From the IMG/VR virus record IMGVR_UViG_3300022752_000082, positions 1 through 57,128 of that record: a stretch of DNA of 57,128 bases. One strand, given 5' to 3'. This DNA comes from a virus (lineage: Duplodnaviria; Caudoviricetes). The position numbers were made by a program, and so were the translations under genes. This document shows positions 2,821 through 26,705 of this stretch, in pieces (the first letter of the stretch is position 1; the number at the start of each line of letters is the position of its first letter). A model generated the notes under the pieces. That model was not told where the DNA came from and did not search any database. It saw only the letters and a list, made by a program, of their open reading frames with translations.

Positions 2821-2844
2821 CCCCGGGCACTCGCGTACCCGGGG
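2821..2844 (-). terminator. GC-rich stem-loop closing the cassette array
   Basis: CCCCGGGTAC-GCGA-GTGCCCGGGG (GNRA loop) just after the stop of 2859..3422; no U-tract. Confidence 0.5.
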
Positions 2845-2858
2845 CGTGTCGCTCGGAC

Positions 2859-3422
2859 CTAGAACCCGAACTTTTTCCGGCACTCAGGCCCGAGTTGAAG
2901 TTCGCGCGAGCGCTCGTCGGTCAACTCCGCGCCGCATGAACCGCAGCACGCGTAGTGCTCGCCGAATGCGCGAGCGTACTTGTACGGGTCCGCCGCGATG
3001 ATGCTGACGAGGTCCTTGACCTGTTGCACGGTGAACTTGGAGCGCGTGAAGCCGCCGGGCGCGCCGTGCAGTTGGCGCATGTACAGGGTGCCGCGGTACT
3101 CGCGGACCTCGAGGAAGACGAGGTCGTTGTTCGTCGTCACCGAGGTGCCGGTGAGGTCCGTGACGCTCACCGCGTACCGGGACTTGGGAATCGACGCGAG
3201 CACCTCGCGAAGGCCGCTGCCGCCGCCGGTCTTCACCGCGGAGTTGCGCGGAAGCGCGAGCAGCGTGGTGATGACGCCGCTGGCCGCCTTGCTGCTGAGC
3301 GTGTCGTGGGCGAGCGCCTGCTCGGTCGCGGCGCGGTACGCCGGGTCGACGGCGCGCTCCGCGAGCAGGCTCGCGATGAACCCGCGCTGCTTATCGCTCG
3401 CGGGGAAGGTGGTGGTTGTCAT
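2859..3422 (-). CDS. Phage protein with C-terminal Zn-finger (DUF6011-like)
   Basis: CGSCGAELTDERSRELQLGPEC; preceded by motif copy 3461 and CCGAAAGGAC RBS. Confidence 0.7.
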   Translation of the reverse strand: MTTTTFPASDKQRGFIASLLAERAVDPAYRAATEQALAHDTLSSKAASGVITTLLALPRNSAVKTGGGSGLREVLASIPKSRYAVSVTDLTGTSVTTNNDLVFLEVREYRGTLYMRQLHGAPGGFTRSKFTVQQVKDLVSIIAADPYKYARAFGEHYACCGSCGAELTDERSRELQLGPECRKKFGF

Positions 3423-3536
3423 TGGGGTCCTTTCGGTGGTTGGTGCGGCGGGTGCCGCTGGAGTCTATTATAACAGGTTGTAGAAAGCACCGCGTGATCG
3501 GCGCGATCGGCGAGCCGCGATCGGCGAGCCGCGTGC

Positions 3537-3558
3537 GCCCGGGGCTTTCGCCCCGGGC
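3537..3558 (-). terminator. GC stem-loop after 3568..3924
   Basis: GCCCGGGGC-GAAA-GCCCCGGGC, perfect 9-bp stem with GNRA loop. Confidence 0.55.
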
Positions 3559-3567
3559 CGCGTCGCG

Positions 3568-3924
3568 TCAGCGCTTGTAGAGGTAGCCCGTGTAGGGATC
3601 CCACTTCGACTTGAGGTCGGCGAGTGAGCCCGCGTCGAGGATGTTGTAGCGCGCGCCGTTGAGGGCGGGTCGCTTCCATCCCGCTGACTTGTAGACGTCG
3701 CCGGTCTCCGCGTCGACGAAGCAGTGAACGCTCGCGCCGCCGCGTGCGCCTGACGGCGACACGGCGATTCGAATGTACTTACGTCCGCCATCGACGAAGA
3801 AGACCTCGGGCTTCAACATCGGGTAGTTCGCCGCGTGGTGCGCGACGTTGGCCTCGTTCATGAAGTCGACGAGTGCGTCGACCGCGACGAGGACCTCTCC
3901 CTTGCGGGTGGTCGTGGTAGTCAT
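3568..3924 (-). CDS. Conserved phage hypothetical protein
   Basis: GRKYIRI...SVHCFVD..TGDVYK.AGWKRPA..ARYNI pattern recognised from other phage early proteins; RBS and motif upstream. Confidence 0.75.
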   Translation of the reverse strand: MTTTTTRKGEVLVAVDALVDFMNEANVAHHAANYPMLKPEVFFVDGGRKYIRIAVSPSGARGGASVHCFVDAETGDVYKSAGWKRPALNGARYNILDAGSLADLKSKWDPYTGYLYKR

Positions 3925-4091
3925 GGTGTCCTTTCGGTTGAGTCGGCACCCTGCGTGCCAACGAGTCTATTATACGACTTATAGAAGCCTCCCGATCCGC
4001 CGATCGCCGATCGGGCCGCGTCGTTTCTAAAAGTGTTATATTGGTCTCCAGCGGCGCACAAGGCGCCGCGACAACCGAAGGGACGAATGAC

Positions 4092-4343
4092 ATGGAGAAA
4101 AGAATCATCATGGCGCGCACGAGCGACATCGGTCCGATGGGCCGAGGCCAGGCGGGCAAGCAGAAGGTGTACGAGATTCTCGTCACCGGCAACACGGTCA
4201 CTTTCTCGTGGGGCATGGCGGAGAAGGTTCAGCGCCAAACGAAGCGCATCACCTGCCGCAGCCACCAAGAGGCCCTGGCCGAAGCGAACGCGAAGGTCGC
4301 CGCAAAGGCCGACCGCGGATACCGCGTCCTGCTCAACGCCTAA
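4092..4343 (+). CDS. WGR-domain-like protein, copy 1 (inverted cassette)
   Basis: KVYEILV...VTFSWG...A.A..K..RGY resembles WGR; paralog of 10856..11107; driven by inverted motif 4024 and GAAGGGAC RBS. Confidence 0.75.
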   Translation: MEKRIIMARTSDIGPMGRGQAGKQKVYEILVTGNTVTFSWGMAEKVQRQTKRITCRSHQEALAEANAKVAAKADRGYRVLLNA

Positions 4344-4357
4344 TCGAACATCGCGGG

Positions 4358-24383: not shown

Positions 24384-24710
24384 CTATTTGGCCTGGAGGA
24401 CCGTGTACTGCGACTCGGTCAGAGTCGCGGTGTACGCCTCGGGGAAGGCCGCCTTGAGCGCCTCGCGGTCGATGTTCGAGCGGTTCCGGGTGAGGATGCG
24501 GACGCGCTCGACGCCGTTGATGGCGCCGACGGACGCGGTTCCGAGCATCGCGCGGAGCTTGGTCTCGGCCTCGAGCTTCTTGGCCTCGATCGCCTTCATC
24601 GCGGCCTTGGCCTCGTTGAACTCGACGATCAGCGCCTCGGCGCTGGCTTCGAGGTTGGCGACCTCTTCGGTGGTCGTGACGACTGTGGTCGTCGTTGCGG
24701 TGGTTGTCAT
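24384..24710 (-). CDS. Coiled-coil phage protein, copy 2
   Basis: Paralog of 11622..11945; motif 24751. Confidence 0.75.
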   Translation of the reverse strand: MTTTATTTTVVTTTEEVANLEASAEALIVEFNEAKAAMKAIEAKKLEAETKLRAMLGTASVGAINGVERVRILTRNRSNIDREALKAAFPEAYTATLTESQYTVLQAK

Positions 24711-24844
24711 TGCGGTATTCCTCTCTGGGGCTGGTGCCCCGGTTGTTGTTGATTCCATTATAACGCTTTTAGAAACGGCGCCCGGGCTGTCTCGCCCGGG
24801 GCGCCTTATCTATAGTGACCGTAGCGCAGGGGTGTTACAGGGTT

Positions 24845-25360
24845 TCAGCAGATGCTGAAGCCGCCGCATGACTCGAGGAAGAGCGCAAACTCGTCGACAT
24901 TCGAGACATCGAACGGGTAGCCCGCGGCCCAGTGCTCTTTGGTGCCGACGCCGTCACAGCCATTGCACCAGCCGTGCGTGCGCCCGGTGAGGATCGCTAC
25001 CTCAGGGGGGAGCTCGCGTGTGGGCATGCCCATGTCTTGGCCGACCTTGTCAGTGCGGATGCCGGTACCTTCGCAGAGGCTGCACACCTCGCGAGGAAGT
25101 GCAGCGAGCTCGGCTCGGTAGTCTTCCTCGTACTTCTTGGTGCGGCCTGATCGAATCTCTGCGAAGAGAATCGCCGCGAGCTTCTGTGCGCCCTCCGCGT
25201 CGAGCCCTGAACCAGCGTTGCTGTGCCCATCGACTTCCTTGCAGAGCTCAGGAGCGACGTGTTCGCAGTAGTTCCAAAGTGGACGCCACCACCACACGTT
25301 GTTCCTGAAGTATTCGCCGGCATCGTCTGTCGGCGCCTTTCCGTATACATCCATTCCCAT
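24845..25360 (-). CDS. Phage protein with DnaJ-like CxxCxGxG pair
   Basis: YFRNNVWWWRPLW; CSLCEGTG and CNGCDGVG; GGAGG RBS; motif 25396. Confidence 0.8.
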   Translation of the reverse strand: MGMDVYGKAPTDDAGEYFRNNVWWWRPLWNYCEHVAPELCKEVDGHSNAGSGLDAEGAQKLAAILFAEIRSGRTKKYEEDYRAELAALPREVCSLCEGTGIRTDKVGQDMGMPTRELPPEVAILTGRTHGWCNGCDGVGTKEHWAAGYPFDVSNVDEFALFLESCGGFSIC

Positions 25361-25413
25361 GCTGTTTCCTCCAGTTGTTGTTGGGTTGGTATTGCGATAC
25401 TATTATACGACTT

Positions 25414-25629
25414 TTAGAAAGCCTTGATGCCTTCCGACTGGCACCACGGCTCAAAGTCGAGAGCCAGCTCGCGCATCCACTCGCTGACCCAGTTCTTGCG
25501 GCGCTCTTCGAATGTCTCGCCTGGGTGGTCGGGAAGAAAGCGTGCCTCCTCCTCGTACATCTCTTCGGCCTCGACCAGCATCATGTCGAGGTACTCCTGG
25601 TACCGCTCACGGGGAGTTTGGTTCACCAT
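25414..25629 (-). CDS. Hypothetical protein
   Basis: RBS and motif 25657; ends TTC TAA in motif 25396. Confidence 0.7.
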   Translation of the reverse strand: MVNQTPRERYQEYLDMMLVEAEEMYEEEARFLPDHPGETFEERRKNWVSEWMRELALDFEPWCQSEGIKAF

Positions 25630-25724
25630 GTCATCTGTCCTTTCGTTGTGGTTGACGAGTCTATTATACGACTTTTAGAAACCGCCCAGGGCGAGCTGGA
25701 GGACTTCGCCCCGGGCGGCCGAAC

Positions 25725-26000
25725 CTAGTCGTAGTCTTCTGAGTTGAGTATCGACGCCTCTCCTGGCCACAACAGGCCGCCGATGCAGTCGAGGCAGAGG
25801 ACCGTAGGTCGCTCTGAGTCGTCATCTTCATCGGTGCACGCGGCGAGCGCGCACGGGAAGAAGTCTCCAGCGAGTGGGCCAGTCAGGACGCCGCAGTTGT
25901 CGCACTCGGTGTCGTCGATCGTGAACGCGTAGACACCTACGTGCTCGGCTGCGGCCGCGTCTTCGGCTGACTCGATGATGACGACCTCAAGTGAGATCAT
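25725..26000 (-). CDS. Acidic Cys-motif protein
   Basis: CDNC...CLDC. Confidence 0.6.
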   Translation of the reverse strand: MISLEVVIIESAEDAAAAEHVGVYAFTIDDTECDNCGVLTGPLAGDFFPCALAACTDEDDDSERPTVLCLDCIGGLLWPGEASILNSEDYD

Positions 26001-26029
26001 GCTGGGCGCTCCACGCGCCCAACACTAAC

Positions 26030-26605
26030 TCAGGCCTTGATGACGGAGCGCGCCTGGTTGAGGATCGCCTCGAGCTGCTCCACGCGCGCGCGGAGCTCGT
26101 TGCGCTCGTTGACGACGCGCTCGACCTCGGTGAGGACGTAGGCGCCAGGGACCTTGCCGTTCTTCGCCTCGACGCGCTTGAGCCAGCGCTTGGACGCGCG
26201 GTACTGCGACTCAGAGGTCGCGTTGCCGTCGCCGAGGACGATGTCGGGAAGCGCCTCGGTGCGGCGCGGGACCTGCGCCTTCGCCGAGAAGAGTCGGGCA
26301 AGCTGACCGCGAACCTCGACTCCGCCGCTGCGGACGATTCGCTCGGCCTCGGTCTCGACGCGGGTGCTGAGCGCCTTCGCGGCGACGAGCTGGTTCAGCC
26401 AGCGGTTCGTGCGCTGGTTGTCAAGCTTCTTGCCGGTAAGCGCGTTGTATCGGAAGCAGACCTCTGCGACCGAGAGTGGCTGCTCTTCTTCGACGATGAT
26501 CTGCTTGAGCAGGTCACGCGTCGTTGCGCCGGCGATGCGGCGCTGCTCGACGAGCTGCGCGAACCGCGGTGACATCGTGCGCTTGGTGGGTGGTGATTTC
26601 TTCAT
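26030..26605 (-). CDS. Putative winged-helix DNA-binding protein with C-terminal coiled coil
   Basis: PLSVAEV...TNRWLNQLV; partial motif at 26644; GGAGAG RBS. Confidence 0.6.
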   Translation of the reverse strand: MKKSPPTKRTMSPRFAQLVEQRRIAGATTRDLLKQIIVEEEQPLSVAEVCFRYNALTGKKLDNQRTNRWLNQLVAAKALSTRVETEAERIVRSGGVEVRGQLARLFSAKAQVPRRTEALPDIVLGDGNATSESQYRASKRWLKRVEAKNGKVPGAYVLTEVERVVNERNELRARVEQLEAILNQARSVIKA

Positions 26606-26705
26606 GTTGTCTCTCCAGTGTGAGTGCCCGGCGGATGCCGGACGAGTCTATTATAACCGTGATCTTGGCGATTCCGGGAAGATCGAGGACTTTTTTCCAA
26701 CCTCG

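Follow-up and report, generated by a model that had tools for sequence, protein, structure and literature searches.

The stretch analysed here (the window) is the complete IMG/VR record IMGVR_UViG_3300022752_000082, a 57,128-base sequence of a virus of the Caudoviricetes that is estimated to represent 38% of a genome. At 3.4-25.7 kb, and only there in the window, one short element bearing a TATAAT hexamer is repeated between small genes. The genes of this array lie on the minus strand and are read towards a methyltransferase and the large terminase (528-1940, minus). On its 5' side are colinear conserved genes and a tRNA gene at 29257-29330, the sole match of Rfam, and farther on are a class II ribonucleotide reductase, an Fpg glycosylase, a primase-helicase and a 1697-aa collagen-repeat protein. 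Sequencing runs that contain the stretch were freshwater, lake or estuary metagenomes (20 rows, 10 studies), and at least half of the sampled words were present in only 6 of those 20 metagenome rows.

A scan with the 25-mer TTTCTAAAAGTGTTATAATRGAMTC allowing up to 3 mismatches gave 33 matches in the window (32 minus, 1 plus) and 0 in 100 dinucleotide-preserving shuffles. The 21-nt core TTCTAAAAGYGTTATAATRGA was found at the same threshold in 35 copies with 0 expected, including 34 on the minus strand (3966..25680) and one on the plus strand (4025-4045). A 36th, degenerate copy on the minus strand (3464-3485; TTCTACAACCTGTTATAATAGA), with a spacer one base longer, heads the gene 2859-3422. Motif spacings, derived by hand from the copy coordinates, ranged from 198 to 1965 nt apart from a single gap of 3188 nt. 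The 60 open reading frames (ORFs) of the array that were scanned matched only eight Pfam families (WhiB, DUF7717, DUF6011, WGR, HslV-like protease, HTH_58, Rod_CreS and LysM). An initial annotation made from the letters alone had described about 36 copies of one 25-bp element, all but one co-oriented and heading mostly novel small ORFs, and these results agree with it. The larger AAA_5 ATPase (22543-23538) and its 620-aa partner (20530-22392) are likewise placed under predicted array promoters and, like the HslV-like protease (13107-13697; all minus), are conserved in the family.

The nearest named record was the Actinomycetia phage DSL-LC01, assembled from a metagenome (54% identity for the 620-aa protein), followed by Microbacterium and Gordonia phages. 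In the syntenic region of DSL-LC01, GATTCTAAAGATGTTATAATAGAATC was repeated about 33 times in one orientation and was accompanied by the ribosome binding site (RBS) seen in the window, and four further IMG/VR contigs carried 21-34 copies each of their own motif variant. A search with the conserved ATPase identified at least 109 related IMG/VR stretches, 80 of which were retrieved for motif finding. A TATAAT-bearing repeat was present in at least 10 copies in 28 of these 80 stretches and took the form of several distinct 'dialects'.

Promoter positions were numbered with the leaderless ATG taken as +1, which places TATAAT at -12 to -7, TG (or CG) at -15/-14 and TTCTAAAAG at -24 to -16. The array strand had 23 occurrences of the string TGNTATAAT and the opposite strand had one, while most remaining copies read CGTTATAAT or TCGTATAAT and retained G at -14 or a TCG. 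The extended -10 that had been proposed, a TGn before a TATAAT-like hexamer, is therefore present at the level of sequence in the 23 array-strand copies. Six of the 35 copies (marked leaderless in Table 1) read TATAAT-AGACTC-ATG and are candidates for leaderless expression, the A of the start codon falling 7 nt after the hexamer; a TATAAT-N6-ATG spacing was also seen by eye in one motif family of the relative G001. The other 29 copies are followed by a leader of approximately 26-51 nt with an RBS of the CGAAAGGACA type.

Hairpins accompanied many of the copies. A strong hairpin (minimum free energy, MFE, of -20 or below) was located within the 50 nt upstream of 15 of 34 copies compared with 49 of 400 control windows (p=1e-5), in line with the earlier statement that modules often end in a GC hairpin. 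A GC hairpin at the 5' end of the leader (MFE of -9 or below) was found for 14 of 34 copies and 91 of 400 controls, while the median folding energy of the leaders did not differ from the control (p=0.38). The proposed alternation of a leaderless ATG with a stem-loop plus RBS thus held for the two kinds of start, the stem-loop being confined to a subset of leaders. The stop codon of the upstream ORF was the TAA within the motif in 8 of 34 copies, and the motif holds stop codons in two frames. Intergenic gaps within the array were short and mostly filled by the unit.

No conservation was detected at -35 in any of five lineages aligned on the -10 hexamer (the window, DSL-LC01, G001, G002 and G004), and a scan of the window for canonical -35/-10 pairs returned 1 site where 2.6 were expected. 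A CTAAA box at -22 to -18 was shared by all five, and consensus strings of other lineages in the family, read by eye, had the related boxes CTAGG, CCAGA, CTGAG and CTAAG five bases before TATAAT. The element looks like a promoter, as it combines a consensus -10 with TG/YG, is intergenic and co-oriented with the genes and has an ATG 7 nt after the -10 in six copies. Sigma70_r2 had no match in the window, G002, G004 or the complete DSL-LC01, while its positive control matched in 10 of 14 genomes. Given this and the promoter architecture, the putative promoters are most likely read by the host RNA polymerase with its primary sigma factor, with no phage factor needed. A comparable arrangement is the Z-element, which maps at -22 to -18 and can stand in for the -35 when the -10 is strong, acting through the beta' zipper of the core polymerase (PMC3173786). 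Like the putative promoters of the array, promoters of that type lack a -35 and combine a strong -10 with a spacer block conserved at exactly -22 to -18, but the work that defined them used T7 A1/A2 and the polymerases of Thermus, E. coli and Bacillus, not of Actinobacteria (PMC3173786). The CTAAA box may, from its position, be a Z-like element.

Boundaries of cassettes in the window's own lineage were examined with Logan contigs of four runs (X6, X7, X9 and X10) aligned to 5000-24999, a stretch in which motif cores make up approximately 3% by our own count from coordinates. Run X7 came from another study and most of its aligned contigs were 90-99% alike to the window, corresponding to a relative at about 95%. 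Joints with at least 30 letters on the shorter side were regarded as well supported. Three of the four well-supported joints, all in X7 (8449->8849, 9838->10037 and 12359->12746), had both ends inside motif copies and in register, restored one exact-length motif and each skipped one ORF (126, 59 and 89 aa); the 198-nt skip of the second equals the motif spacing. Collapse of k-mers at the repeat seems unlikely since the motif copies in the window share fewer than 31 identical bases pairwise.

Three loose contig ends were within 3 nt of a motif 5' edge (X6 at 19363, X7 at 19365 and X7 at 7177). The X7 contig at 19365 runs on as 25683-25712, the flank of the first array copy, and the one at 7177 runs on into sequence that was not found in the window. 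The single X6 contig at 19363 runs on as 3987-4013 (27 letters), a backward jump of 15.4 kb that a circle, a tandem duplication or a transposed cassette would each yield. A further loose end, X6 at 7708, was preceded by 3503-3532. The two ends of this junction fall within GC hairpins that resemble each other and precede motif copies, which suggests that upstream hairpins can also be crossover points. Joints with a side below 30 letters (5866->22240, 7734->19333, 11966->15834 and 14601->23015), the backward joints 15092->12935 and 24246->21701 and the loose ends of the low-depth runs X9 and X10 were not used, and no conclusion was drawn from parts that the contigs of X9 and X10 left uncovered.

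Both paralogous cassette pairs in the window start exactly at the first base of the motif, its 5' edge. The inverted cassette 4024-4377 is 70.7% identical over 365 nt to 11174-10820, and 24385-24775 is 73.5% identical over 400 nt to 11623-12013. The single WGR match among the 60 array ORFs was assigned to the former pair and probably belongs there. Promoter-plus-leader blocks also match over 42 and 27 nt before unrelated genes, with upstream flanks that share at most 7 nt.

The relatives extended these observations. Loci L077 and G004 were 96% identical over 16.7 kb and had two structural differences, both at motif copies: a 90-bp indel adjoining the motif 5' edge, and two cassettes swapped for one, where motif, leader and RBS make up 44 nt common to the junctions. 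Compared with G001, DSL-LC01, G004 and G002, the flanks of the window were colinear and the order of the array was scrambled, although adjacency breaks were associated only weakly with an intervening motif (Fisher p of 0.037, 0.075, 0.045 and 0.074, respectively). Among 39 clean indels from 11 close family pairs, about 12 adjoined a promoter-like repeat as judged by eye. The nearest neighbour of a promoter (over 28 nt) came from the same genome for 127.3 of 159 copies, and the promoters before the orthologous ATPase and its partner followed the variant of their own genome, which indicates concerted evolution of the promoter copies. The initial annotation had regarded the promoter itself as the module boundary and had named colinear relatives, or breakpoints unrelated to the motif, as findings that would speak against this. 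The idea survived the comparison, with a scrambled array and breakpoints at the motif; the X7 joints, both L077/G004 differences and both paralogue pairs place boundaries there, and with about 12 of 39 family indels the promoter is a boundary but not the only one.

A near-identity search of GenBank phages with 13 kb of the array gave no match, a scan of the viral contig collection for the exact window motif gave 0 matches, and a wider motif pattern gave 76 single matches in genome contigs, none in Actinobacteria and none multi-copy. The sole exact-motif match in metagenome contigs, L156 (1.5 kb, AT-rich), had no blastn likeness to the window and was set aside. The motif scans thus provided no closer relative, prophage or host clue. 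In Microbacterium phage Pumpernickel, the region around the homologous ATPase contained no reiterated motif, with 2 TATAAT in 31.9 kb and tightly packed genes, so that those cultured relatives do not share the array. Repeats of 'GGGGTAAAAATG' returned by the motif finder in some lineages were RBS plus start codon and not promoters, and those lineages were unusable for the promoter test. In the IMG/VR relatives at loci L105-L109, the motif TGCTACTAAGA was often one arm of a hairpin-like inverted repeat (CTTTAGTAGCA...TGCTACTAAG) beside which indels ended, and this unit may be different in kind from the TATAAT promoters.

Taken together, the arm at 3.4-25.7 kb is probably a hyperplastic region of composite regulatory units, in which -10 promoters read by the host polymerase double as crossover points. 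Each unit would consist of an often present GC hairpin and a 25-nt promoter, followed either by a start codon at the first transcribed base or by a short leader with a strong RBS and, in a subset, a hairpin, with one to a few small genes behind it. Because the same 21-25 nt recur every few hundred bases in one orientation, these repeats, often together with leader and RBS, could serve as points of short-homology crossover within genomes and between co-infecting ones. In-register crossovers would then delete, insert, duplicate or swap whole promoter-to-promoter units. After such an event the stop codons that the motif has in two frames would still end the upstream ORF, and the gene behind the motif would still have a promoter. 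The same exchange would homogenise the promoter copies within each lineage. Direct observation covers the array and its anatomy, cassette indels in register, duplicated units and motif variants particular to each lineage. Activity as promoters, the start site, use by the host polymerase and early timing are all predicted from sequence, the part in host takeover or anti-defence that the initial annotation suggested for the genes is hypothetical, and homologous recombination as the mechanism, as well as any role of the -22 to -18 box, is likewise presumed.

Several observations weigh against this reading or restrict it. None of the runs that contain the stretch is recorded as RNA, which bears on promoter activity, start site and timing; a search for a T7-type RNA polymerase found nothing, its control matching nowhere and the result thus being uninformative; canonical (E. 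coli-type) T-run terminators were not enriched (27 versus 19.3 +/- 4.9 in shuffles); and Z-element promoters carry AACCT or AACAT where CTAAA stands here, with no sequence likeness (PMC3173786). The own-lineage indels come from assembled contigs and not raw reads, mostly of the one run X7, and the joint 8449->8849 may be a replacement as the letters between its sides are not known. The fourth well-supported joint (18237->18321) is inside an ORF and off the motif, and only one of the four weak joints touches a motif. By eye, about 16 of the 39 family indels were placed at an RBS or start codon, with direct repeats as long as 19 nt in some cases, and about 11 elsewhere, and this distribution suggests that any reiterated regulatory sequence can be a junction, the promoter being one of several. 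Gene order was also broken where no motif separates the genes. Finally, the unit takes up most of the short intergenic regions, and breakpoints should to some extent fall near the motif even if it had no role in recombination.

These last points would be in keeping with a strong early promoter that is simply reiterated, where illegitimate recombination is random and selection keeps the promoter-bearing products so that boundaries seem motif-bound. The roughly 27 of 39 indels that end away from the promoter, the order breaks without a motif, the short intergenic gaps and the short overlaps of a few to tens of bases at many clean junctions all fit that account. It fits less well with the three of four well-supported joints that rebuild an exact-length motif from two copies, with duplicated cassettes that begin at the motif's first base, or with the 44 nt of shared motif and leader at the L077/G004 replacement junction, and selection on promoter strength alone leaves homogenisation within genomes at variable spacer positions unexplained. 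We consider it rather unlikely. A similarly low probability is given to the -24 to -16 box and AGAMTC (-6 to -1) being the site of a phage or host regulator, so that the copies are co-regulated operator-promoters resembling the stoperators of Cluster A mycobacteriophages or the phiC31 early promoters, and lineage-specific variants reflect co-evolution with the regulator protein. Conservation over about 25 nt exceeds the needs of a -10/TG promoter, each lineage has its own variant, the consensus can be read as a partial dyad TTCTA...TAGAA around the -10, and the array encodes a WhiB and an HTH protein. However, no candidate regulator was connected with this site, a G at R destroys the dyad, the G001 variant does not have the dyad, and the -22 to -18 box is in the spacer of the promoter, a region that RNA polymerase itself contacts (PMC3173786). 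A regulator site would not prevent the motif from acting as promoter and crossover point too.

The term 'integron-like' used in the initial annotation describes at most the layout. Integrons and clusters of attC sites lacking integrases (CALINs) are likewise arrays of small cassettes in one orientation with a single repeated element between them, and relatives differ in cassette content as they do here. Integrons depend on an IntI-type tyrosine recombinase and attC sites, and their promoterless cassettes are driven by one Pc promoter. In the array each cassette instead has its own putative promoter and the repeat is promoter-like, with no folded attC-type sites. No match to Phage_integrase (PF00589) was obtained in the window, which is only about 38% of a genome, in the fragments G002 and G004 or in the complete genome of DSL-LC01, with the control matching in 14 of 14 genomes and serine recombinases not searched. 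Crossover looks homology-driven and not confined to one site; it also occurs in upstream hairpins and at the RBS. That a site-specific recombinase moves cassettes through the repeat is consequently very improbable, even with the superficial likeness in layout and the X6 contig that leads from a motif edge back over 15.4 kb to a flank, as would be seen with a circle.

Short repeats are familiar from other actinophages. Cluster A stoperators are repressor sites, Cluster K start-associated sequences are translation-linked sites, and phiC31 early promoters carry repressor sites. These resemble the array in having tens of short, asymmetric intergenic copies oriented with transcription, and differ from it in that the motif here carries a consensus -10. 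To our knowledge, neither stoperators nor start-associated sequences have been described as a cassette boundary with in-register indels. A literature search, which did not cover supplementary files, found no description of such arrays in actinophages; the words promoter, repeat and intergenic had 0 occurrences in the main text of the DSL-LC01 paper, and the passages on whiB actinophages in the COBRA paper made no mention of promoters.

The closest described system is that of the promoter-early stem-loop (PeSL) elements of T4-type phages, with approximately 50 composite units per genome in hyperplastic regions before ORFans (Arbiol et al. 2010, PMC2839356). The suggestion that nothing on this scale had been described in actinophages stands as far as the literature found extends; in T4-type phages the same kind of system is known (PMC2839356). 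PeSLs mark the ends of indels that separate close relatives, and they also give rise to mini-circles (PMC2839356; Comeau et al. 2014, PMC4122927). As far as those accounts describe them, both systems have dozens of composite promoter and stem-loop units with the upstream stop at the 5' end and a Shine-Dalgarno sequence and start at the 3' end, located in a hyperplastic region of small ORFans whose insertions, deletions and replacements, as seen between close relatives, have the unit as their boundary. The array would thus work like a PeSL system with a different promoter architecture. It has no -35 and no AT-rich upstream region, the upstream flanks being GC-rich, but TG/YG and the box at -22 to -18; six units are leaderless; and the stem-loops precede the promoter or belong to the 5' leader, the promoter itself containing none. 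Whereas PeSLs are known to form mini-circles, the array has a single suggestive contig (X6 19363->3987-4013). The phage lineage and host phylum are also unrelated, the virus being an actinophage akin to DSL-LC01 and to Microbacterium and Gordonia phages. As the nearest records are actinophages and not T4-type myoviruses, the array is regarded as an analogue of PeSLs and not a member by descent.

Motif copies and cassettes are collected in Table 1. The two copies at 3966-3986 (minus) and 4025-4045 (plus) form a divergent pair with a 38-nt GC-rich hairpin (3987-4024) between them. The paralogous small proteins 24384-24710 and 11622-11996 (minus) were conserved in all four relatives compared. An identity with phrog_434 ('RecE-like recombination exonuclease') was rejected for both, as only the last ~100 of 372 positions match, and since this C-terminal match is too short for a nuclease they were not counted as a recombinase; a link of these proteins to recombination is possible.

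Table 1. Coordinates of motif copies and cassettes in the array
Feature	Position	Strand	Remarks
Whole array	3464..25680	-	35 minus-strand putative promoter units, ~60 small ORFs; transcription towards terminase
Degenerate motif copy, spacer +1 base	3464..3485	-	heads DUF6011 gene 2859-3422 (Pfam)
Motif copy	3966..3986	-	divergent partner of the sole plus-strand copy; heads gene 3568-3924
Only plus-strand copy, -10 = TATATT	4025..4045	+	heads inverted cassette
Inverted cassette: putative promoter, leader hairpin, RBS, WGR-like ORF 4092-4343, 3' tail	4024..4377	+	paralogue of 11174-10820
Motif copy	7154..7174	-	X7 contig leaves for non-window sequence 3 nt past 5' edge (7177)
Motif copy, leaderless ATG	7449..7469	-	
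Motif copy, leaderless ATG	7680..7700	-	X6 contig joins 7708 to 3532
Motif copy, leader hairpin and RBS	8225..8245	-	
Motif copy, leaderless ATG	8434..8454	-	one end of X7 joint 8449->8849
Variable cassette 1, ORF 8449-8829 (126 aa)	8450..8848	-	skipped or replaced in X7 contig, in register; side 62
Motif copy, leaderless ATG	8833..8853	-	other end of X7 joint 8449->8849
Motif copy	9362..9382	-	
Motif copy	9839..9859	-	one end of X7 joint 9838->10037, the other being copy 10037-10057
Variable cassette 2, ORF 9854-10033 (59 aa)	9839..10036	-	missing from X7 contig; side 165, 1 letter between
Motif copy, leaderless ATG	10037..10057	-	
Motif copy, leaderless ATG	10349..10369	-	
Motif copy	10783..10803	-	leader matches that of copy 12730 over 42 nt, different genes behind
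Motif copy	11153..11173	-	heads WGR-like ORF 10856-11107, paralogue of inverted cassette
Motif copy	11556..11576	-	
Motif copy	11992..12012	-	heads ORF 11622-11996; cassette 11623-12013 paralogue of 24385-24775
Motif copy	12344..12364	-	one end of X7 joint 12359->12746
Variable cassette 3, ORF 12419-12688 (89 aa)	12360..12745	-	missing from X7 contig, motif to motif, in register; side 255
Motif copy	12730..12750	-	other end of X7 joint 12359->12746
Motif copy	13011..13031	-	
Motif copy	13941..13961	-	
Motif copy	14279..14299	-	
Motif copy	15833..15853	-	
Motif copy	16348..16368	-	27-nt leader block in common with copy 18413
Motif copy	17361..17381	-	
Motif copy	17667..17687	-	
Motif copy	18413..18433	-	27-nt leader block in common with copy 16348
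Motif copy	19023..19043	-	
Motif copy	19343..19363	-	heads ORF 19087-19299; 5' edge joined to flanks of other copies in X6, X7
Motif copy	20455..20475	-	
Motif copy	22420..22440	-	heads 20530-22392, 613-620 aa, 'cobalamin biosynthesis protein' in DSL-LC01 annotation
Motif copy	23586..23606	-	heads AAA_5 (MoxR-like) ATPase 22543-23538
Motif copy	24109..24129	-	
Motif copy	24754..24774	-	heads ORF 24384-24710, paralogue of 11622-11996
Motif copy	25399..25419	-	stop codon of upstream ORF inside motif
Motif copy, first (most upstream) of array	25660..25680	-	

Other features of interest included a second repeat, CCCGTCTGCA, present in 10 copies on the plus strand and 0 on the minus strand (13037, 13071, 19369, 19561, 26886, 27010, 27102, 27189, 27284 and 27757). 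Five of these cluster at 26886-27284 inside the ORF 26706-27527, and related GCAGACGGGCAC repeats cluster in the relative G001. An 874-aa protein without a Pfam match (31395-34019, plus) is followed by a subtilase at 34072-35313 (plus; Peptidase_S8, E 3e-39). A TauD-family dioxygenase is encoded at 36921-37718 (minus) and a VanY-type D-Ala-D-Ala carboxypeptidase with a peptidoglycan-binding domain at 41764-42597 (plus). The 1697-aa protein mentioned above (49991-55084, plus) contains little else than collagen triple-helix repeats (15 stretches; Pfam Collagen, E 3.6e-176), and a 660-aa ORF after it runs off the end of the window.

The array would extend PeSL-type modular shuffling, so far known from T4-type phages of Gram-negative hosts, to an unrelated and abundant group of uncultivated freshwater actinophages (at least 109 IMG/VR contigs), with evidence at the nucleotide level from natural populations. 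It would also provide a simple account of orphan-gene turnover and of the uniform promoter variant in each lineage. A more far-reaching version, possible but on balance doubtful, is that of a permanently recombining platform in which the promoter is the crossover site, circular or tandem intermediates (19363->3987) spread genes between co-infecting phages, and exchange drives concerted evolution and the dialects. The -35-less promoter with TG and the -22 to -18 box would then be contacted by core polymerase and constitute the first large natural set of the -10/Z type, in Actinobacteria. The 36 natural variants of a compact promoter lacking a -35, some of them leaderless, could be tested as expression parts for Actinobacteria and could be used to probe the role of the conserved -22 to -18 box.

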